Positions 11,127-58,009 of a DNA stretch of 58,227 nt are shown piece after piece. Origin of the DNA: a virus (taxonomy: Duplodnaviria > Caudoviricetes); the IMG/VR virus record IMGVR_UViG_3300017716_002607, positions 1 to 58,227 of that record, one strand, 5' to 3'. Position 1 is the first letter of the stretch; every line of letters begins with the position of its first letter. The notes beneath the pieces were generated by a model. That model was not told where the DNA came from and searched no databases. It was given only the letters and a program-made list of their open reading frames with translations. The position numbers and the translations under genes were made by a program.

Positions 11127-11386
11127 AATTTGATTATCTTAACAAGCAAATTTCCTGTACCCTTTATTACTCTGTGGTACATGTGTTTAGGTATAAATAT
11201 TGGTTTATTTAGTACTATAGGAAGAGAGTCGTCTAATTGTAATGACCAATCAGTTGACTCTAAAGCTTCTACTATTCTATCTTCATTATCACGATGCCAC
11301 ATAAAATTAATGATATCTGTTTTATCACTAAATTCTCGAATTATGTGTTTATCTGTTACTTCTATATTTTTGTATGGATCTATCAT
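11123..11386 (-). CDS. small cupin-like protein
   Basis: WHRD.EDR and IFIPKHMYHRVIKG cupin-like motifs. Confidence 0.55.
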   Translation of the reverse strand: MIDPYKNIEVTDKHIIREFSDKTDIINFMWHRDNEDRIVEALESTDWSLQLDDSLPIVLNKPIFIPKHMYHRVIKGTGNLLVKIIKL

Positions 11387-11892
11387 AGCCCTAATTTTTT
11401 TAATTGTTTGATAGTATCGGGAGTATTATTATATAGTATGCCTATACCACCAGCGTTATTCCAACTATCAATTGTTTCTGGTTTATCATCAATTAATATT
11501 TTGTTTTTATCTGAATAGTGGTGTTTTTCTTTGGCTCGTTTAAATATTACTTTTTGGTCAGGCCCTATTTCTTGATCAATCCATCCTCGTTTTCCTTCTT
11601 CAGAGCTTTTTTCTCGTGATGGAGCAGATAAAATTATGGGATCATATTGTTTAATATAATTCCAAAGTGCTTTACCTCCAGACATCCAATCTAAATTTAA
11701 CCAAAAATTAGAACCAGCATCAGATATGGGTTTCCAAAATTTAGCATCTCCTTTAGTATGTTTTCCTCCTAAATCAATACCAGTTAATTCTTTATAACCT
11801 TTATCAAAGTCAGCTAAAACACCATCCATATCGCAGTATATTTGATATTGGGGTGCTTTAATTTCATTTAATAAATCTATTAATTTAATCAT
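11383..11892 (-). CDS. HAD-family 5'(3')-deoxyribonucleotidase with MIKL leader
   Basis: DMDGVLADF, ILSA, K..W, LIDD motifs. Confidence 0.85.
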   Translation of the reverse strand: MIKLIDLLNEIKAPQYQIYCDMDGVLADFDKGYKELTGIDLGGKHTKGDAKFWKPISDAGSNFWLNLDWMSGGKALWNYIKQYDPIILSAPSREKSSEEGKRGWIDQEIGPDQKVIFKRAKEKHHYSDKNKILIDDKPETIDSWNNAGGIGILYNNTPDTIKQLKKLGL

Positions 11893-17354: not shown

Positions 17355-18095
17355 TTAACAAATAGTAGTATTTGAAATAACTCCCAAATTACTTACTTGG
17401 ATAGCTGTTGTTATAGGACCAATTCCTAAATAAGACAATGCAATCCATCTATTATTACCTATAACAGGTACAGTACATGCCTCATTAGAATATAAAATAT
17501 TTCCTGCACCCAAACTACCCCCAGATAAAATATAATAAGCAGTACTAGCAATTGTATTATAAGCACTGCAAGCTAAATAAGCTTGTGTATAAGTTTGAGC
17601 AGGAGTACCTATATATAACACCCCAGCCGGTGGTGGTGTTGTAGATGGTGTTCTACTAATAGTAATAGAAGGTGTTGGTGTTAATGAAATACCCGCTGTT
17701 TTACTTGGTGTAACACTTGGTGTTATACTTGGAGTCACACTTGGTGGTGGTGTTAAACTAGGTGTAACAGTTGGTGTAGCACTTGGTGTAGCACTTACAC
17801 TAGGTGTTACACTTATTGATGGTGTTTTTGATGGTGTTACACTTATTGTTGGTGTAGGAGATAAAGTTGGTGTTGGAAATGGTACATCATCTTGTGTAGC
17901 ACAACCATACGCCATATCAAATACAACAACAGAAGATGATGTAAATCCACTTGGAAGAGAAATAACATATCCTGCTTCCATTTGAGCTTGAGTTACTCCT
18001 GAACCATACAATGTTAACCCTGAGCTACCTGATAAGTAGACATCGTATGGTCCATTTGCTGTTCCTTCTTGATAATATATATAAAAGTCTGGCAT
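17355..18095 (-). CDS. virion protein with Thr/Pro/Ser-rich linker
   Basis: TPS(I/V) repeats between two small domains. Confidence 0.75.
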   Translation of the reverse strand: MPDFYIYYQEGTANGPYDVYLSGSSGLTLYGSGVTQAQMEAGYVISLPSGFTSSSVVVFDMAYGCATQDDVPFPTPTLSPTPTISVTPSKTPSISVTPSVSATPSATPTVTPSLTPPPSVTPSITPSVTPSKTAGISLTPTPSITISRTPSTTPPPAGVLYIGTPAQTYTQAYLACSAYNTIASTAYYILSGGSLGAGNILYSNEACTVPVIGNNRWIALSYLGIGPITTAIQVSNLGVISNTTIC

Positions 18096-18114
18096 TTTTA
18101 AATGTTATTAATTA

Positions 18115-20727
18115 TTAACAAAATGTTGGGAATCCTGCAAAATCTAACCCATCCCAATATCTAACTATAGTTCCATCTGAATAATACCCTGCTGGAGCTA
18201 AAATTGTTCCTCCTGCATCTGTATACAATGCTGACATATTATTTAGGTTTGAATTATCTGAGTAGTAATTACTATAAGTTAAATCAGTACATGCACGGAA
18301 TTCATTAGTACCATAACCTAATGATACTAAAATTAAACCTGCTGGTTGTGATGTAGACGGTGTTATACTCGGTGTAGCTGTTACTGTTATACTAGGTGTT
18401 GCTGTTGGTGTAGGGAACGGCGTTGGTGATACATTAGCTGTTACTGACGGTGTTATACTTGGAGTAATACTAGGTGTAACAGTTGGTGTTATACTTGGTG
18501 TTTTAGTTACACTTGGTGTAGCAGTCATTGTTGGCGTAAAACTTATACTAGGTGTAGCCGTTGCTGTTGGTGTAATACTAGGTGTTATAGATGGTGTTCT
18601 AGTTATACTTACACTAGGTGTTACACTAGGTGTAGGACATGGGTTAGATGTCTGACATGTAGCACAATCTGGGTATCCTAAATTACCACTCCATGTTAAA
18701 GTTGCAGTTAATTCAATATTACTATTTATAGTAAAACATTCACCTGTTGTTGATGTTACAACTGAGCCTATAAATGCAGCAGATATTACCATTGCTTCTT
18801 TTCTAGAATCACAACAACTTATTGCCTGACGAATAGCTAATGGTGATGAAGTTGATGGTGTAATACTAGGTGTAATACTTGGCGTTATACTTGGTGTAGC
18901 ACTTATTGAAACTGATGGTGTTACACTTGGTGTTCTAGAAATTGATATACTTGGTGTTACACTAGGAGTAGCACTATTTGTTGGCGTTATACTTGGTGTA
19001 GCACTTATTGAAACTGATGGTGTTACACTTGGAGTTGTACTAAGAGAATTACCAGGAGTTACACTTGGAGTTGCACTTATCGAGATCGAAGGTGTAGCTG
19101 TTGGTGTAGCACTTATCGAGATCGAAGGTGTAATTGATACACTTGGTGTTATACTTGGTGTATTACTAATAGAGATCGAAGGTGTTACACTTGGTGTTAT
19201 TGATGGTGTTGCACTAATAGATATACTTGGTGTAACCGTTGGTGTAGCACTTGGTGTTGCACTGATCGAAATTGAAGGCGTTGTACTAGGTGTAGCCGTG
19301 TTTGTTGGTGTTATAGACGGTGTTCTAGAAACAGAAATACTTGGCGTTACAGATGGTGTATTACTAATTGAAATCGTTGGTGTTAAACTAGGTGTTATAC
19401 TTGGAGTCACACTAAGTGAAATCGAAGGCGTTACACTTGGAGTAGCACTTGGTGTAGCACTTATCGAGATCGATGGTGTTACACTTGGTGTAGCACTTGG
19501 AGTAGCACTTGGTGTAGCACTTATCGAGATCGATGGTGTTACACTCGGTGTAGCGCTAATCGAAATTGAAGGTGTTAAACTTGGTGTTATTGAAGGTGTT
19601 ACACTTGGTGTTGCACTGATCGAAATCGATGGTGTAATCGATGGTGTAATCGATGGTGTAGCACTAATTGAAATCGAAGGTGTTATTGATACACTTGGCG
19701 TTAAACTAGGTGTTCTACTTATACTAATAGTAGGAGTAGGTGTTACAGTTATTGATGGTGTTACAGATATAGTTGGTGTAACAGTTGGTGTTGGTGGTGG
19801 TAATTCTACAATTCCTATTTCAAATTCACATTCTGGATCTGTTACATTTACGGTTATACTTCCTGTACCACTTCGTAAAGGAGCACAATAAGAACCAGTA
19901 ACTAAAAATGTATAAAATGTTTGATATATTCCAGTTCCTAAACCGGAGAAAGACATAGATACAGTGTTACTAGAACCCGTACTAAAAAATGATATATCCC
20001 CTCCAAATAAAGTAATAGACTGATTTACTAATGTATTACCTCTTAAATCATCATTTAATAAAGGATTAAACGAGAATGTTGCTGGGTTAGGATAATCACT
20101 TCTTATAATTGTGTAAGTATCATTATAAGCAACTGGGGGTAATACAAATAAGGTTTGAAAGTTTTGATCTGTAATTACTATTGTACCTTGCTCATAAAAA
20201 ATATTACCCACATGAGCTGGTGGGTTACTATTAAAGTTATCATAAACATTACCTTTACCATCATCATAGAAATTATAGGCAGATGATGACATTTGGAAAG
20301 TATAAGGTAATAATCTACTTCCGTATGATTTAGGTGATATTTGAATTACTTTTATTGTTTCATTTGCGCCTGTAGGAAAATTAGAAATAAAAGCAGGGTC
20401 ATTATTATAGTTAAAATATGAAGCAGTAGGGTGACTACTGCTAGCTGACTCATAGTATAATGATGATGCTAAAGAAGATGTATTTAAACTACCCGAAAAA
20501 TCATGGTAGAATAATTGATTTATTTGTCGGTAAGTTAATCTATCGTATTGCCCATTAGTTATATAATCCCCATTAGGATTAAATAAATCTACTGCATTTA
20601 TACCATTATAATACGAAACATAAGGGTCATTAGTTGGAACTGGACAATAGTTAAAGTTCCAACTTTTATTTGCTACAACAGGTACTGTTATAACATCCGA
20701 AGATTTTAACTTTTTGAATGAACCCAT
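18115..20727 (-). CDS. tail-fibre-like protein with long Thr/Ser/Pro repeat stalk
   Basis: 870 aa; TPSI/TPSV/SISA repeats; Cys-rich insert; tail gene context. Confidence 0.75.
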   Translation of the reverse strand: MGSFKKLKSSDVITVPVVANKSWNFNYCPVPTNDPYVSYYNGINAVDLFNPNGDYITNGQYDRLTYRQINQLFYHDFSGSLNTSSLASSLYYESASSSHPTASYFNYNNDPAFISNFPTGANETIKVIQISPKSYGSRLLPYTFQMSSSAYNFYDDGKGNVYDNFNSNPPAHVGNIFYEQGTIVITDQNFQTLFVLPPVAYNDTYTIIRSDYPNPATFSFNPLLNDDLRGNTLVNQSITLFGGDISFFSTGSSNTVSMSFSGLGTGIYQTFYTFLVTGSYCAPLRSGTGSITVNVTDPECEFEIGIVELPPPTPTVTPTISVTPSITVTPTPTISISRTPSLTPSVSITPSISISATPSITPSITPSISISATPSVTPSITPSLTPSISISATPSVTPSISISATPSATPSATPSVTPSISISATPSATPSVTPSISLSVTPSITPSLTPTISISNTPSVTPSISVSRTPSITPTNTATPSTTPSISISATPSATPTVTPSISISATPSITPSVTPSISISNTPSITPSVSITPSISISATPTATPSISISATPSVTPGNSLSTTPSVTPSVSISATPSITPTNSATPSVTPSISISRTPSVTPSVSISATPSITPSITPSITPSTSSPLAIRQAISCCDSRKEAMVISAAFIGSVVTSTTGECFTINSNIELTATLTWSGNLGYPDCATCQTSNPCPTPSVTPSVSITRTPSITPSITPTATATPSISFTPTMTATPSVTKTPSITPTVTPSITPSITPSVTANVSPTPFPTPTATPSITVTATPSITPSTSQPAGLILVSLGYGTNEFRACTDLTYSNYYSDNSNLNNMSALYTDAGGTILAPAGYYSDGTIVRYWDGLDFAGFPTFC
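18350..19800. repeat. degenerate coding tandem repeats (TPS(I/V) units)
   Basis: Recurrent ggtgttacact / acttggtgt units. Confidence 0.85.
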
Positions 20728-39712: not shown

Positions 39713-39877
39713 AACTTTTTAATTTAAGTCTAAATATACGAATGTTTTTTCTTGTTTCCAAATTCTTGTATATACGTTTTGAAAGGGATAAAAGATCGTT
39801 AAAGGAAGAGATTTCGGGGTCTTGGATTTTGTATCGAATGGGATATAATGGATTTTATGGTATATTTGTATATACAT

Positions 39878-40135
39878 GGGGCGCGGGGCGAATTTTGTTG
39901 TCTTGTTGTGTAGCCGGGGCCTTCTATCGTTTTGTTAGCGCAGCGTCGATGGACCGCAATTACCGTGGGCCCACTTCGCCGTCGCAGCGCGCGCGCAGCG
40001 CTAGCGTATCGATAGTTTGAAAGAGGATGTTCTTTTTTTGTCACACGCCAGTCCAGACGTGGATCCAGACATTTGGATGTTCTTTTTGTCACACGCGCGC
40101 TAAGGATAACGAAGGCGACCTTTTGGCCGCCTTAT
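39878..40135. other. GC-rich noncoding island with palindromes and direct repeats
   Basis: GGGG runs, CGCGCGCG, GGATGTTC-Tn-GTCACACGC twice. Confidence 0.7.
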
Positions 40136-40164
40136 GTTGTTTTCTTAATATTTACCGTATATGT

Positions 40165-41613: not shown

Positions 41614-41640
41614 AAAAAAAGACTCAATTAAGAGTCTTTT
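41614..41640 (-). terminator. repeated terminator AAAGACTC-AATTAA-GAGTCTTT (also 42637-42663, 43147-43171)
   Basis: Three identical hairpins with A-run on + strand between cassettes. Confidence 0.8.
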
Positions 41641-43483: not shown

Positions 43484-43702
43484 TTAATCGTTTTTATCGT
43501 TATTTGGTTTAGTGGCCGCATTATAATTCCTCCATTCCAGCCAGAATCCAATAGCCACTATAATGTTCATTCCGAATGAGGCTAGTATCTCATGGATGTC
43601 CTCATACACATTAGTTGTCAAGTGGACGTGCCCCACCATCCAAAATGGAATAGACAGATTGCCTGCTACCCATGTAATCAAAAATATAATAAACTTCTTC
43701 AT
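43484..43702 (-). CDS. small membrane protein
   Basis: Two hydrophobic segments. Confidence 0.65.
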   Translation of the reverse strand: MKKFIIFLITWVAGNLSIPFWMVGHVHLTTNVYEDIHEILASFGMNIIVAIGFWLEWRNYNAATKPNNDKND

Positions 43703-43777: not shown

Positions 43778-44038
43778 TTATGCTTGACCTACTACACCAC
43801 CAAATGCTGGTGTTTGTGGTTCGTCTTGAGGTTCTTCTTCTTGGTTTTGACTCATTTCATATTCAATTAGCATCATCATAGCCATTTTTAAAACCCTGTT
43901 TACTTCTTCTGAATGTGTAGCTGCATTAGCTATTGTTTCTGCTAAATTTATAGCACCACCTTCAATTTTGATACTTACTTCTTCACCTAGTACTTCAATA
44001 CTAAAAAGACAATTGTTGTTTTTTGTTTCTTCTGACAT
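43778..44038 (-). CDS. small acidic protein
   Basis: 86 aa; own promoter. Confidence 0.7.
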   Translation of the reverse strand: MSEETKNNNCLFSIEVLGEEVSIKIEGGAINLAETIANAATHSEEVNRVLKMAMMMLIEYEMSQNQEEEPQDEPQTPAFGGVVGQA

Positions 44039-44108
44039 AATAAAAATATTTAATTGTTAAACTTTGATATAAAAGTATGAATAATATTTTAGGTAACCAA
44101 ATAAAGAT

Positions 44109-44130
44109 AAAAAAAGCGCCGAAACGCTTT
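44109..44130 (-). terminator. terminator AAAGCG-CCGAA(A/G)-CGCTTT (second copy about 44989-45011)
   Basis: Near-identical hairpins with A-runs. Confidence 0.7.
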
Positions 44131-44132
44131 AA

Positions 44133-44303
44133 TTAACTTAAACAACCATCTACGTAGGCGTAAAATTCATCGTATGATTTAAAACCTTCAATATTAAATC
44201 TCTCAGTAACATTATTTATTACTTTTTGTCTTACATTTTGTTTACAACTATTGTCGTCTAAAATGTTTTTTAATTCTTCTAATAATACATCTAATTCTAA
44301 CAT
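44133..44303 (-). CDS. small hypothetical protein (56 aa)
   Basis: Manually translated MLELDVLLEELKNILDD...; promoter at 44334 and terminator. Confidence 0.65.
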   Translation of the reverse strand: MLELDVLLEELKNILDDNSCKQNVRQKVINNVTERFNIEGFKSYDEFYAYVDGCLS

Positions 44304-44367
44304 AACTTTTATTTTTAATTGTTAAACTTTGATATAAAATTATGAAACATAACTATAACAACCAAAT

Positions 44368-44928
44368 CTATCTACAAAAAAGACGATTGTAGTTGTACTT
44401 AGCTACTGGATTAATGTCTGCTATTATGCTGTATGTGCCACTAGTCTGTTCAAACAAAAGACTGGTGTCTCTGGTGTCCTGAAGCTTTTCCCTAAGTATG
44501 TTAACAAAACCGTGGTTCGATTCGTCCACTATATATTGGGGTGTACCAGGCAATCCACAATAAGCAGCCTCACCCGTCTCAGAGATAAACATGCCGGTAT
44601 AAAAACCCTTCAGCATGTGTCTATTAACAAACTGATCTGCGTTGCACCAAATAAAAATACTATTGTCTTTCTGGCTTAGTGCCTCCACCATACCAGTTCC
44701 AATCACATAACTAGCAAAAGGGCTATTAGTAGGGAACTGACCTACGGCAAATAATCCACTTGGGCTCCCATGCCCCATCATCATCACTTGATCGTGTGTC
44801 TGGATTGCCTCCTGGATCTGGTTCTGGGGCCAGCTGTCAGTTACTAGAGTGACATTATCTAGGCCGGCATAAATTGGACTCAAAAAATTAGTTGAGGCAT
44901 CATGGGGGTGTATTACTAGTGTTTTCAT
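44368..44928 (-). CDS. putative caspase/CHAT-fold cysteine peptidase
   Basis: Hydrophobic-MGHGS and FIWCNA motifs matching a His-Gly/Cys dyad. Confidence 0.55.
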   Translation of the reverse strand: MKTLVIHPHDASTNFLSPIYAGLDNVTLVTDSWPQNQIQEAIQTHDQVMMMGHGSPSGLFAVGQFPTNSPFASYVIGTGMVEALSQKDNSIFIWCNADQFVNRHMLKGFYTGMFISETGEAAYCGLPGTPQYIVDESNHGFVNILREKLQDTRDTSLLFEQTSGTYSIIADINPVAKYNYNRLFCR

Positions 44929-45015
44929 TTTTTTAATTTAAATTTGGTATAAAGGTATGAAAAATTTCTTGGGTATCCTAGTAAAGACAAAAAAAAGCGC
45001 CGAAGCGCTTTAATT

Positions 45016-45342
45016 TTATTCTTCTGGGTCTGGTTCTCCTAAAGGCATCAAATATTCTTCTAGTGTGTCACGAATAAAATCTATATCAAAATCTATACTT
45101 TCTATATAAATCTCATTACCACTTAACTCAAATTCAACTGATCTTCTATCTATAGCATCATCACTTTTATGACTAATCTCACTTAATGCTTTGTCTAATG
45201 CATCACTAATGTCTGACACTGTAATGGATTTACCTGTTAAATCATACATTTCAACCATTTCAATTAAACGAACAACGTCGTCTTTGCTAAAAATAGAACT
45301 CTCAGAATTCAATACACGGTCTAATACTTCTTGTTTTTTCAT
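45016..45342 (-). CDS. acidic hypothetical protein
   Basis: 108 aa; own promoter and terminator. Confidence 0.75.
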   Translation of the reverse strand: MKKQEVLDRVLNSESSIFSKDDVVRLIEMVEMYDLTGKSITVSDISDALDKALSEISHKSDDAIDRRSVEFELSGNEIYIESIDFDIDFIRDTLEEYLMPLGEPDPEE

Positions 45343-45389: not shown

Positions 45390-45545
45390 TTACGACACAA
45401 AAATCTGGTAACCAAAGATAAATGAAGAGTCTTTACGACTCTTGTTTTTATGTTTATCCTTACGGGTGTATGTCTTTTTTGTCTTGTGGATCAGGAGCCT
45501 AGATGCTGCCCAGCGCTCTTGAAGTGTGATTTGGATCGTCTTCAT
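45390..45545 (-). CDS. ArfA-like basic peptide (51 aa)
   Basis: Manually translated ...KTKKTYTRKDKHKNKSRKDSSFIFGYQIFVS*; internal hairpin. Confidence 0.5.
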   Translation of the reverse strand: MKTIQITLQERWAASRLLIHKTKKTYTRKDKHKNKSRKDSSFIFGYQIFVS

Positions 45546-45664
45546 AATCATAATGTTTAATGTCTTCCGACATACATACTAAAAAAATAGTGTTCCCTAT
45601 TTCTGGATCTATGGGGATCCCCTGAACCCAGAGGAATTGCTCCCACTGGGCCAGATGGTCCAAC

Positions 45665-45916
45665 TCATTCATTTAGATCTTTTCTAGTACCAACACCTAA
45701 ACCCTCATACTGTAAAAGTGAATTACAGATGTATCTTTGGATCTGGGCAATCGATTTAAGATTCTCTATGTTGTTTAGGATTGTTTTTTTATCATCGTCG
45801 TTAATATTCTTTTCATTAACGAATTCGGTGATAAACGTTTTAGCTTTAGTTGCATCGGTCATTTTAAATACTTGCTCTGCAATTTGCTCGAAAATGGATT
45901 TAATTTGTACTCTCAT
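45665..45916 (-). CDS. hypothetical protein
   Basis: 83 aa; promoter at 45942. Confidence 0.7.
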   Translation of the reverse strand: MRVQIKSIFEQIAEQVFKMTDATKAKTFITEFVNEKNINDDDKKTILNNIENLKSIAQIQRYICNSLLQYEGLGVGTRKDLNE

Positions 45917-46154: not shown

Positions 46155-46487
46155 TTACGCAACGACCATCTTCGGACGGCCCCTTTGTATTGTCTCACCA
46201 GCTGTTTTTCTGGCTTCCCATGCAGCTAGTCTTTGCTGTCTAGCACTTGTTAGATTCGGTTTGCGTCCTTTTTGTATCGGACCATTCTCTAACAACATAG
46301 CTCTAGTAGCTAATCTTTGTTGTCTAGCACTTGCTGGATTGATTTTACGTCCACGAGCTTTGTGATCTTCTATCACCACTGTTTTGTGAATTAAAGCAAT
46401 TAATGCTTCTGTTTTCATCTGATGAGCTGGTCTTTCTGTTTTGATACCTAACTCTTTTACTTTTGCTAATACTTCTGTACGCGTCAT
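46155..46487 (-). CDS. basic AT-hook-like DNA-binding protein
   Basis: RGRK, KGRKP, RGRPK and duplicated SARQQRLA. Confidence 0.65.
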   Translation of the reverse strand: MTRTEVLAKVKELGIKTERPAHQMKTEALIALIHKTVVIEDHKARGRKINPASARQQRLATRAMLLENGPIQKGRKPNLTSARQQRLAAWEARKTAGETIQRGRPKMVVA

Positions 46488-47358: not shown

Positions 47359-47433
47359 CGTACGTTATTATTCTATTTCGTCGTACGTTTCGTTTTTCTC
47401 GTCGTACGTTCTGCTCTTTCCGTCGTACGTTTT
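47359..47433. repeat. iteron-like CGTCGTACGTT repeats with 21-bp period
   Basis: Copies at 47379, 47400, 47421; partial copy at 47359. Confidence 0.85.
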
Positions 47434-47445
47434 ATTTTAGCTGGA

Positions 47446-56881: not shown

Positions 56882-58009
56882 TTAATGAGAATCTCCTACA
56901 TCATTCTTCTCTCCGTAGATCAAATAGTCTGGATTGATTACTTTGGCTACTTTTTGACGTTCACCTGTGTAGTATTTTATTACAATCCCTTCATGTGGTA
57001 CTTTAGTTCCTTCAATGAAGTTGTTAAATGTAAATTTATCTTGGATTTCTTGTGTCCAATCTCCGTAATGTAAAATCTCTACATAAGGTAATTTTAAATG
57101 GTCTTTAACTAAATTCCAAGCATCATATGTACTTAAATATTCACCTCTAAGCTTCACATCAAATCCGGCAAACTCAATTTCAGTTAAACCATAGTCATAG
57201 TTTTTCTGAATACCTGCTCCATAAATTTCTCCATACAAAATAATACCTTCACCTACTTCAACATTTCTGTTTTTAATATAACTCCAAAGTTTTTCTTTGA
57301 TGTCATATTTTTCAGCTACTGTTCTCCAAACATCAGTTGAATAGAATCCTTGAGAGTCACTTCCTTTTTCACAGTTATGAGATCCATAAATGTATTCATA
57401 GTCAATCCACTTATCGGCTAGTCTAAAGAATTTTTTTACTTTATCCCAGAATGACAATTTAGATTTCTTTACAATACCATATCTAGCATTTGTACCATGA
57501 ACCTTTCTAGTAATTTCTACTAAATCTTCTTCAGTAAACATTCCATCAACGTTTTTAAGGTTTGGGAATTTGTAATAGATATGAAAGTTCTGATTGTCTC
57601 TCCATTTAATCTTTCTACCTGAAGCAAGTTGAATTTGTTTAACTGGTGGTTCGTATTTTACAATACCAAATTTTTCCATCATGTCATCTCCATCCTGGTA
57701 TCTGTCTCCATATCCTGGAATGTATTTAGTTGGAATGATTAAACATTCAGAATAAACTCCTCTTAATTTTACAGTTCTTACTCTGCCTCCTTTTCTTAGG
57801 TAAGAAGTAACTCCCATTTTTTCAGAGAATGCTTCTGGTATAACTGCATCAGTTGTTGCAATGACAGTTAAGTCACCTTCTTTAAATTCTCCTTTTTTAG
57901 TAATAGCATTCCATCCTCCAACAACTACTTGTTCAATGTTGTCAGCTCCTTCGATTGCTTTTACTTCTTTGATTGTTGCTATAAAGCAAACACTATTTTG
58001 ATTTTCCAT
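56882..58009 (-). CDS. RNA ligase (DRB0094/Rnl5-like, N-terminal OB domain)
   Basis: IEGADNIE, KLRGVYSE, KVHGTN, YGEIYG, FDV, EGIV, KVIN. Confidence 0.9.
   Translation of the reverse strand: MENQNSVCFIATIKEVKAIEGADNIEQVVVGGWNAITKKGEFKEGDLTVIATTDAVIPEAFSEKMGVTSYLRKGGRVRTVKLRGVYSECLIIPTKYIPGYGDRYQDGDDMMEKFGIVKYEPPVKQIQLASGRKIKWRDNQNFHIYYKFPNLKNVDGMFTEEDLVEITRKVHGTNARYGIVKKSKLSFWDKVKKFFRLADKWIDYEYIYGSHNCEKGSDSQGFYSTDVWRTVAEKYDIKEKLWSYIKNRNVEVGEGIILYGEIYGAGIQKNYDYGLTEIEFAGFDVKLRGEYLSTYDAWNLVKDHLKLPYVEILHYGDWTQEIQDKFTFNNFIEGTKVPHEGIVIKYYTGERQKVAKVINPDYLIYGEKNDVGDSH

Follow-up and report, generated by a model that had tools for sequence, protein, structure and literature searches.

The virus record IMGVR_UViG_3300017716_002607 of IMG/VR, a member of the Caudoviricetes, was analyzed over its entire length of 58,227 bases (hereafter the window) and has an estimated completeness of 36%. 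Its GC content is about 0.30, and 86 of its 87 open reading frames (ORFs) lie on the minus strand. Matches to PHROG families for baseplate wedge subunits, a DNA polymerase exonuclease subunit, primase, ATP-dependent DNA ligase, RNA ligase and endolysin point to a tailed, myovirus-like phage, the host of which is probably a member of the Bacteroidota. Near-identical DNA is present in contigs of at least 24 public sequencing runs from 21 studies, with the labels freshwater, lake, riverine and plain metagenome; the sample from which the record derives may be among them. We focused on the coding sequence at 44368..44928 (minus strand, stop codon included), which encodes a 186-residue protein with a predicted caspase-hemoglobinase (clan CD-like) fold and has an mRNA that is unusually poor in runs of A.

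The protein was modeled with AlphaFold2 from an alignment of 39 sequences. The model has a predicted local distance difference test score (pLDDT) of 90.5 and a predicted template modeling score (pTM) of 0.87, with disorder only in the loop at residues 64-71. It shows an alpha/beta fold with a caspase-type central sheet, while the C-terminal third forms a helical bundle (helices 131-180). In a comparison with 48,161 chains by VIA-align, ranks 1-23 were all occupied by peptidases of the caspase-hemoglobinase fold, at Z 8.0-11.3. The top matches were SAVED-CHAT (8tl0; Z 11.3, 160 aligned residues, root-mean-square deviation 3.3), separase (Z 10.1) and DdvA (8rot; Z 9.9), and further matches included legumain, MALT1, metacaspases, gingipains, caspases, clostripain and GPI8. 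Furthermore, Foldseek returned seven PDB chains at E <= 0.001, all of them caspase-4/11, with caspase-4 as the best match (E 1.1e-4).

In peptidases of clan CD, a His (then Gly) comes before the Cys, and each ends a hydrophobic strand. The same order was found here, with a His-Gly pair and then a Cys, each after a hydrophobic strand. More specifically, His53 (codon at 44770..44772, minus strand) lies in an invariant G52-H53-G54 motif at the C-terminal end of strand 47-54, and Cys95 (codon at 44644..44646, minus strand) lies in a W-C-N-A-D motif right after strand 90-94. From the alignments and the strand order of the model, these two residues are the candidate catalytic His and Cys. No substitution of His53, Gly54 or Cys95 occurs among 86 relatives (36-91% identity), nor any of His53 or Cys95 among the 39 sequences of the smaller alignment. 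T13, G58, W94, M113, S116, E120 and N179 are invariant among the 86 relatives as well; of the acidic residues, E120 is invariant, and D10 and E117 are nearly so. Within the clade of close relatives described below, the gene is under purifying selection (dN/dS 0.08-0.29). A first inspection of the letters and translations, referred to here as the sequence-only reading, had called the product caspase-fold peptidase-like and had proposed to look for a His/Cys dyad by fold prediction. The predicted model supports this assignment for both the fold and the candidate dyad.

No family was found for the protein in Pfam (0 families at E <= 1), PHROGs, NCBIfam or PADLOC, and searches of the PDB by sequence and by profile gave best E values of 0.4-0.65, to unrelated chains. 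Over the 86 relatives, Pfam produced scattered noise only (25 families listed), with no CHAT match in any of the 86. When the profile of the 86 sequences was aligned by hhalign with 25 Bacteroidota CHAT domains, the probability was 0.3%. On these results, membership of Pfam CHAT (PF12770) was rejected, and so was membership of Pfam Peptidase_C14, a family absent both from the matches of the protein and from those listed for its 86 relatives. We file the protein as a new compact variant of the fold, outside CHAT and C14.

Among the known systems, the best structural matches are to CHAT proteases, namely the CBASS-like SAVED-CHAT and the anti-sigma factor DdvA mentioned above, together with the Csx29-type CRISPR effector partner 7zoq (Z 7.4). 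These matches span residues 1-186, and CHAT proteases likewise have the His and then the Cys, each after a hydrophobic strand. Of 151 genomes sampled from the probable host phylum, 87 encode CHAT domains. In contrast to the CHAT proteins of Bacteroidota, which are open frames of about 850-1600 residues, the 186-residue protein has no sensor or repeat domain, is encoded by a phage and shows no detectable sequence or profile similarity to them. Separase (C50) is matched at Z 8.5-10.1 over 141-144 aligned residues, and one of the 86 family members gave a Peptidase_C50 match at noise level (E 0.095). However, separase is a giant eukaryotic enzyme under securin control, with no sequence relationship to the phage protein. 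Caspases, metacaspases and MALT1 (C14), legumain and GPI8 (C13), gingipains (C25) and clostripain (C11) share the fold at Z 7.3-9.0, but the phage protein has neither a p20/p10 linker nor a prodomain and carries the C-terminal helical bundle. The best viral structural rows, from BFVD, are caspase-domain proteins of giant viruses (Megaviridae, cedratvirus, pithovirus). This likeness is weak (best E 1.3e-3, no row at E <= 0.001), and the giant-virus proteins differ in being 200-325 residues long and in belonging to viruses of eukaryotes.

A word-indexed search found 1435 relatives among 1455 candidates, all unnamed or 'hypothetical', and the family comprises 963 clusters at 50% identity (E <= 0.001). 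Of the 249 viral stretches that came up as candidates in IMG/VR, 236 encode a relative, and their contigs are up to 335 kb long. The species-genome collection contains 52 loci, 39 of them in records titled as Bacteroidota metagenome-assembled genomes (MAGs) or uncultured Bacteroidota, and the INPHARED phages contribute one record, with 34% identity over 70% of the protein. The family is large, lacks annotation and is mostly linked to Bacteroidota phages. Longer relatives number only four (327-416 residues), and Pfam shows no domain in any of them; PCI, B-box or C1 matches occur in three long representatives, in two cases below the curated cut-off.

The neighbor families of the homologue loci include no constant annotated partner gene. 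The commonest neighbors encode a 344-residue protein (60 loci), a DnaA-C helix-turn-helix (HTH) protein (42), a 172-residue protein directly downstream (29) and a 414-residue protein (23). These families are unannotated or linked to replication, and only the 344-residue family has a copy in the window, 4.8 kb from the caspase-fold gene. In other phages, the gene lies among genes for replication and nucleotide metabolism. The homologues on bacterial contigs sit in mobile or conflict islands. One (L176:6001-6585) lies beside ImmA/IrrE-HTH pairs, DUF4411 and an Mrr-ResIII helicase, a second (L168:5941-6579) beside a two-component ART/ARG pair, a UvrD-like helicase and DUF1848, a third (L178:5953-6585) beside an 1810-residue helicase-REase_MTES_1575 protein, and a fourth (L197:5908-6372) beside IS21 and an integrase.

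The second property of the gene is its scarcity of A-runs, which appear as T-runs on the plus strand. Within 44368-44928, T-runs of at least three occur only at 44486 (4 nt), 44668 (3 nt) and 44922 (4 nt), and ATTT is absent, compared with 10 T-runs and 4 ATTT in the 261-nt gene at 43778. On the coding strand (minus), these are an A4 run at codon 2 (Lys2 AAA then ACA; 44922..44925), a second A4 run over codons 146-148 (44486..44489) and an A3 run at Lys87 AAA (44668..44670). Counted with overlaps, the mRNA contains 5 AAA versus 26 TTT. The protein has 5 Lys and 11 Phe, and the codon counts are AAG 3 and AAA 2, CAG 9 and CAA 2, GAG 4 and GAA 3, and TTT 10 and TTC 1. The T-run, ATTT and Lys numbers given in the sequence-only reading were all reproduced. 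The densities of AAA (0.89 per 100 nt; mean 5.53) and AAAT (0; mean 1.58) are the lowest of the 87 ORFs of the window, while GC (0.43; mean 0.31) is the third-highest and GC at third codon positions (GC3; 0.43, mean 0.19) the fourth-highest. A-ending codons make up 0.30 of the Gln, Glu and Lys codons, versus 0.88 in the other ORFs of the window. Wherever a clade sequence has Lys at position 2, its codon is AAA (12 of 12), which fits the preference for A around start codons in Bacteroidetes described in PMC6847099.

When the same protein was encoded with the codons of the other window ORFs, 18.2 +/- 2.1 AAA and 5.3 AAAT were expected, versus 5 (0 of 5000 simulations as low) and 0 (P = 0.0002) observed; for TTT, the expectation was 20.8 and the observed count 26. 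The gene is a genuine outlier within its own genome. When its own synonymous codons were shuffled, the expected counts were 7.8 +/- 1.9 for AAA (P = 0.12) and 1.8 for AAAT (P = 0.11), both non-significant, and a dinucleotide shuffle gave 7.2 AAA (P = 0.22). The motif desert is therefore due to codon and amino-acid usage, and not to a placement of codons that avoids AAAU. The scarcity of A-runs follows from gene-specific GC-rich codons and few Lys, and in these single-gene shuffles no additional AAAU-specific avoidance is detectable. We also considered whether, in a host that lacks Shine-Dalgarno sequences, the gene avoids translation starts at internal ATGs, an idea drawn from PMC6847099. This was rejected, since in the clade the 15 nt preceding internal ATGs are about as rich in A as the gene at large (A fraction 0.96-0.99 times the background).

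To place the composition of the gene, 158 loci carrying it were compared. High gene GC (0.41-0.50, with flanks of 0.29-0.36) is confined to one clade, in which a gene has 4-12 AAA, versus 10-41 in the other relatives listed. The clade, which is monophyletic (13 rows; SH-aLRT 97 and 98), contains 12 different sequences from 16 loci, and their identity to the window protein is 58-95%. A nested long-branch member, L004, has a GC down to 0.36 and 18 AAA. The clade loci are syntenic with the window, indicating a single phage lineage in which the gene has been carried vertically. At one locus, L002, the caspase-fold gene is just 76% identical to that of the window although its neighbors reach 88-97%, a hint of allele exchange or of a faster rate of evolution.

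The codon regime of the clade differs from that of the flanking ORFs at most two-fold positions. The fraction of CAA among Gln codons is 0.27 in the clade and 0.85 in the flanking ORFs, that of GAA for Glu 0.37 and 0.77, of AAA for Lys 0.48 and 0.85, of AAT for Asn 0.50 and 0.77, and of GAT for Asp 0.47 and 0.78, while TTT for Phe is at 0.86 and 0.81. At four-fold sites, the window gene has A.32, T.375, G.125 and C.18, versus.44,.455,.056 and.050 in the other ORFs; the clade has.27,.32,.21 and.20, versus.39,.40,.11 and.10 in the other homologues. The GC rise at these sites is roughly symmetric and not a loss of A alone. The amino acids of the clade are shifted as well, with Lys, Glu, Ile, Tyr and Asn down and Gln, Ala and Thr up (FYMINK residues 28.8% vs 36.3%; GARP residues 20.9% vs 17.3%). 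In a Bacteroidales MAG of GC 0.43, ordinary ORFs have A-ending fractions of 0.31 for Gln, 0.53 for Lys and 0.53 for Glu, and T-ending fractions of 0.57-0.67 for Phe, Asn, Asp, His and Tyr. Judged from these fractions, the clade codon usage resembles that of the one mid-GC Bacteroidota genome sampled. The asymmetry between A- and T-ending codons, which the sequence-only reading had taken as an argument against a GC effect, is thus found in ordinary genes of this MAG too, in a small sample with crude ORF calls.

The regime extends to two more small genes in the same block, 43484-43702 (minus strand; 72 residues, GC3 0.47, probably a membrane protein from its sequence) and 45499-45672 (minus strand; 57 residues, GC3 0.50). 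Across the lineage, their families have a GC3 of 0.49 and 0.53, respectively, versus 0.23-0.31 in five neighboring families. The synonymous divergence (dS) between the window gene and distant clade members is 1.2-3.4. Outgroup-polarized changes at synonymous third positions numbered 27 from A or T to G or C (W>S) versus 18 in the opposite direction (S>W) in three independent triplets, and S>W 101 versus W>S 74 in a wider, overlapping set. If GC3 were decaying neutrally from 0.45 towards 0.19, a ratio of about 3.5:1 favoring S>W would be expected (P <= 6e-8 for the observed counts). The clade shows no sign of net GC3 decay, a statement that is only semi-quantitative because the polarization method is biased towards the commoner base. 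A recent import from a high-GC donor was rejected from the depth of the clade, its synteny and, with the bias just mentioned, the direction of substitution. The earlier claim that the gene is not a simple recent import thus holds: high GC characterizes a whole monophyletic clade with conserved synteny, in which pairwise dS values reach more than 1.

The caspase-fold gene lies in a block of short genes with a repetitive intergenic organization. A 53-nt module (repeat family D1) is present in 11 copies between 40485 and 48409, before almost every short gene. Of the 11, the copy upstream of the caspase-fold gene (44929..44981, minus strand) has diverged furthest, with 64% identity to the reference copy; an A-rich leader lies between it and the ATG. 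Judged by eye, without a scan, the module fits the -33/-7 promoter consensus of Bacteroidetes given in PMC6847099. Together with the A-rich leaders, the promoter-like modules suggest promoters for the host polymerase and a Bacteroidota host. Terminator-like hairpins number 8, versus 1.2 expected in shuffles, and many of the D1 modules are paired with hairpins of this kind. One such hairpin (44994..45011, minus strand) ends the upstream gene (45016-45342), so that the caspase-fold gene begins its own transcription unit. Three near-identical copies of a 32-nt hairpin are located at 41615, 42638 and 43147.

Just downstream of the gene lies a 265-bp cassette (44095..44359, minus strand), which contains a 56-residue ORF (44133-44303) with its own promoter module and is flanked by 86-nt direct repeats (D4). 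Contigs of three public runs join 44094 to 44360 and skip the 265 bp, and the locus L082, with a 95% identical caspase-fold protein, lacks the cassette. It looks like an element gained or lost by recombination between promoter modules, outside the conserved unit. In two metatranscriptome runs, one RNA-library contig joins 43777-44094 to 44360-44421 and another covers 44107-44367; among the RNA-library contigs, the gene is touched only at its 3' end (44360-44421, 62 nt), with none over 44422-44928, and contigs cannot show transcription.

With slightly more confidence than doubt, we read the gene as encoding a compact Cys/His protein of the caspase-hemoglobinase fold with an early role in host takeover or counter-defence, its scarcity of A-runs being a by-product of codon usage. 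The block of short genes, each with a promoter-like module, would be transcribed early, from promoters of the host type. The translated protein would then use its His53/Cys95 dyad to cleave a protein of the host or of the phage. A basic residue would probably precede the cleaved bond, as judged from separase, CHAT proteases and metacaspases and from the conserved acidic residues D10, E117 and E120. Such cleavage may serve host takeover or counter-defence. The missing AAAU and scarce AAA would result from GC3-rich codons and fewer AT-coded amino acids. The codon regime shared with the two other small genes is apparently held near equilibrium and not decaying, and may be maintained by host-adapted codon selection, by selection on the mRNA or by exchange with host copies.

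Several observations weigh against this interpretation. In the VIA-align ranking, the first other fold is flavodoxin-like at Z 7.9, so that Z 8-11 stands only moderately above it, and the dyad was located by motif and strand order and not by residue-level superposition. To these are added the absence of a family match in Pfam, PHROGs, NCBIfam and PADLOC and the low hhalign probability given above. In the nucleotide sequence, the pooled clade has 82 AAA versus 112.9 expected from its own codons and falls below expectation in 12 of 12 members; the observed/expected ratio is 0.73, versus 0.956 for the whole window, and the gene's own ratio of 0.65 is the second lowest of the 87 ORFs. The clade deficit is found in AAAG (15 vs 32.9 expected) and, by subtraction, AAAC, and not in AAAU or AAAA. 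CAA stands before an A-starting codon in 1 of 48 cases versus 36 of 88 elsewhere, a comparison of 4 versus 4 sites in related sequences, with CAG used at four conserved Gln sites preceding an A. For A-ending codons before AAx codons, the odds ratio (OR) is 0.44 in the clade and 0.75 in the other ORFs of the window. A-run avoidance beyond codon usage is modest in amount, and its context signal comes from few sites in related sequences. Furthermore, the codon comparison with MAGs covers 20-40 kb per MAG with crude ORF calls, and no MAG is known as the host; there is no mid-GC bacterial sister of the clade among the sampled rows; and the AT-rich flanking genes give W>S 87 versus S>W 41 under the same biased polarization.

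Part of this evidence would be accounted for if selection at the mRNA level, independent of any toxin, kept the caspase-fold gene, 43484-43702 and 45499-45672 rich in GC3 and poor in A-runs, for a longer life against decay by AU-preferring host or phage nucleases or for tuned translation. We regard this as unlikely, although three families at GC3 0.43-0.53 do stand beside neighbors at 0.23-0.31 with the same promoter modules, no net GC3 decay is seen, and A-runs in the clade are avoided above the genome-wide level, by the odds ratios and AAA ratios just given. The amino acids have also shifted, and the decrease of Ile and Tyr and increase of Ala are not obviously explained by mRNA decay sites, besides the small number of related sites behind the context signal. 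Quite improbable, in our judgment, is an inherited composition that has yet to decay to that of the phage, with the gene either acquired by the ancestor of the clade from a genome of higher GC or recombining repeatedly with host-borne copies. Homologues do occur in bacterial chromosomes within mobile and conflict islands, the codon and amino-acid usage look like those of mid-GC Bacteroidota, the 76% identity at L002 suggests allele exchange, and the nested L004 has drifted down to GC 0.36 on its long branch. On the other hand, all 13 clade rows are on syntenic AT-rich phage contigs, the nearest relatives of the clade are AT-rich viral rows and not bacterial ones, and dS of 1.2-3.4 has accumulated without a net S>W excess; by a rough two-state estimate, neutral decay would require an ancestral GC3 above about 0.8. 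It appears equally doubtful that the protein has the fold without being an endopeptidase and acts instead as a transamidase or ligase, hydrolyzes a bond of another kind or, as a decoy, binds a caspase-like defence protein of the host. The fold also houses transamidases and ligases, with GPI8 and OaAEP1 among the matches, inactive members such as c-FLIP and Raptor exist, and the protein has no sequence similarity to any characterized peptidase. However, the invariance of the His and Cys in 86 of 86 relatives, together with the flanking Gly and Trp, Ser116 and Glu120, is the pattern expected of an active enzyme and not of a decoy.

The sequence-only reading had gone further and proposed a transcript purged of A-rich RNase sites to survive a type III toxin, with the encoded protease destroying that toxin. 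We consider this extremely improbable. The target motifs it named are broadly right, since according to PMC7781912 the RNA sites cleaved by ToxN and AbiQ are A-rich (AA^AU, A^AAAA and A^AAA), AAAA being an AbiQ-type site. It is also consistent with the lowest AAA and AAAT densities of the 87 ORFs, with the rarity of A-ending Gln, Glu and Lys codons beside TTT in 10 of 11 Phe codons, with the clade-wide AAA deficit and with a trait that is maintained and not recently imported. However, the analysis of homologues that had been suggested showed that the absence of AAAU is not conserved among clade relatives. AAAU is absent from the window gene and L082 and present 1-4 times in the other 10 of 12 clade members (counts 0, 0, 3, 3, 2, 1, 3, 3, 4, 1, 1 and 1), with 0-11 copies among the 45 closest loci listed. 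Against own-codon shuffles, neither AAAT (22 vs 22.7 expected) nor AAAA (27 vs 27.9 expected) is depleted in the pooled clade, and two AAAA runs are left in the mRNA of the window gene. The roughly symmetric four-fold GC rise and the same codon regime in two unrelated small genes argue against the proposal as well. ToxN_toxin (PF13958) was found at cut-off in none of 401 sampled Bacteroidota genomes and in none of five MAGs carrying homologues of the caspase-fold gene, a result without a positive control, as the control matched 0 of 14 genomes. The window contains no ToxI-like repeat array, no tRNA and no Rfam match, and its remaining transcripts are A-rich, so that the phage as a whole would not be protected. 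The documented phage escapes from type III toxin-antitoxin systems are antitoxin-RNA mimics, unlike this window without an antitoxin-like repeat array, and we found no description in the literature of motif-free transcripts as a route of toxin escape. A broader version, in which the GC3-rich, A-run-poor recoding of the three genes keeps their transcripts intact under an A/U-preferring RNase while the protease cleaves a host immune protein, seems to us very unlikely. The RNase would then be an abortive-infection enzyme of the host or the phage's own mRNA-decay enzyme, and motif-depleted mRNAs combined with a minimal caspase-fold protease would constitute a new phage counter-defence.

The preferred reading, a compact caspase-fold protein with codon-driven A-run scarcity, has a bearing beyond this window. 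Caspase-like proteases serve as bacterial immunity effectors, for example CHAT proteases and the caspase-like effector of type IV Thoeris, which makes a minimal phage relative a plausible candidate for a role in counter-defence or in the takeover of Bacteroidota hosts; few phage-host mechanisms have been characterized in this phylum. Among literature titles and the beginnings of abstracts, no phage-encoded stand-alone caspase-fold protease was found. Stand-alone proteins of about 180 residues with this predicted fold and an invariant His and Cys constitute a large unannotated family, on hundreds of phage contigs (some >300 kb) and in bacterial mobile and conflict islands. The composition results carry a caution, in that a motif desert in a single gene can stem entirely from gene-specific codon usage. 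They also show GC-rich codons retained across long divergence in three genes of a phage that is otherwise AT-rich.

Other features of the window were observed in passing. A conserved, GC-rich non-coding element at 39866-40145 (minus strand) lies between two small ORFs, with a GC of 0.45, and about 0.60 in relatives; the plus-strand ORF called over it (39742-40020) is spurious. The element begins with a hairpin, and its core of some 75 nt is unchanged in six loci whose flanking proteins share only 60-95% identity. RNAalifold predicts 53 pairs, 5 of them with compensatory changes, and there is no Rfam match, making the element a candidate structured RNA. An RNA ligase is encoded at 56882-58009 (minus strand; phrog_968, E 4e-55), and 11383-11892 (minus strand) encodes a 5'-3' deoxyribonucleotidase-like protein with a weak polynucleotide-kinase match. 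A pair of an RNA ligase and a polynucleotide-kinase-type enzyme can mend tRNAs cleaved by host anticodon nucleases. Dense tandem repeats with periods of 12-102 nt fill 17697-19796, inside the Lys-poor ORFs 17355-18095 and 18115-20727 (the larger of 870 residues), and probably represent repeated peptide units of a structural or fiber protein. The ORF at 46155-46487 (110 residues, rich in Arg, Lys and Ala) contains an internal 45-nt duplication at 46224-46352 and keeps its GC-richness through its amino acids and not through GC3. Finally, three tandem 21-nt repeats are located at 47376-47438.

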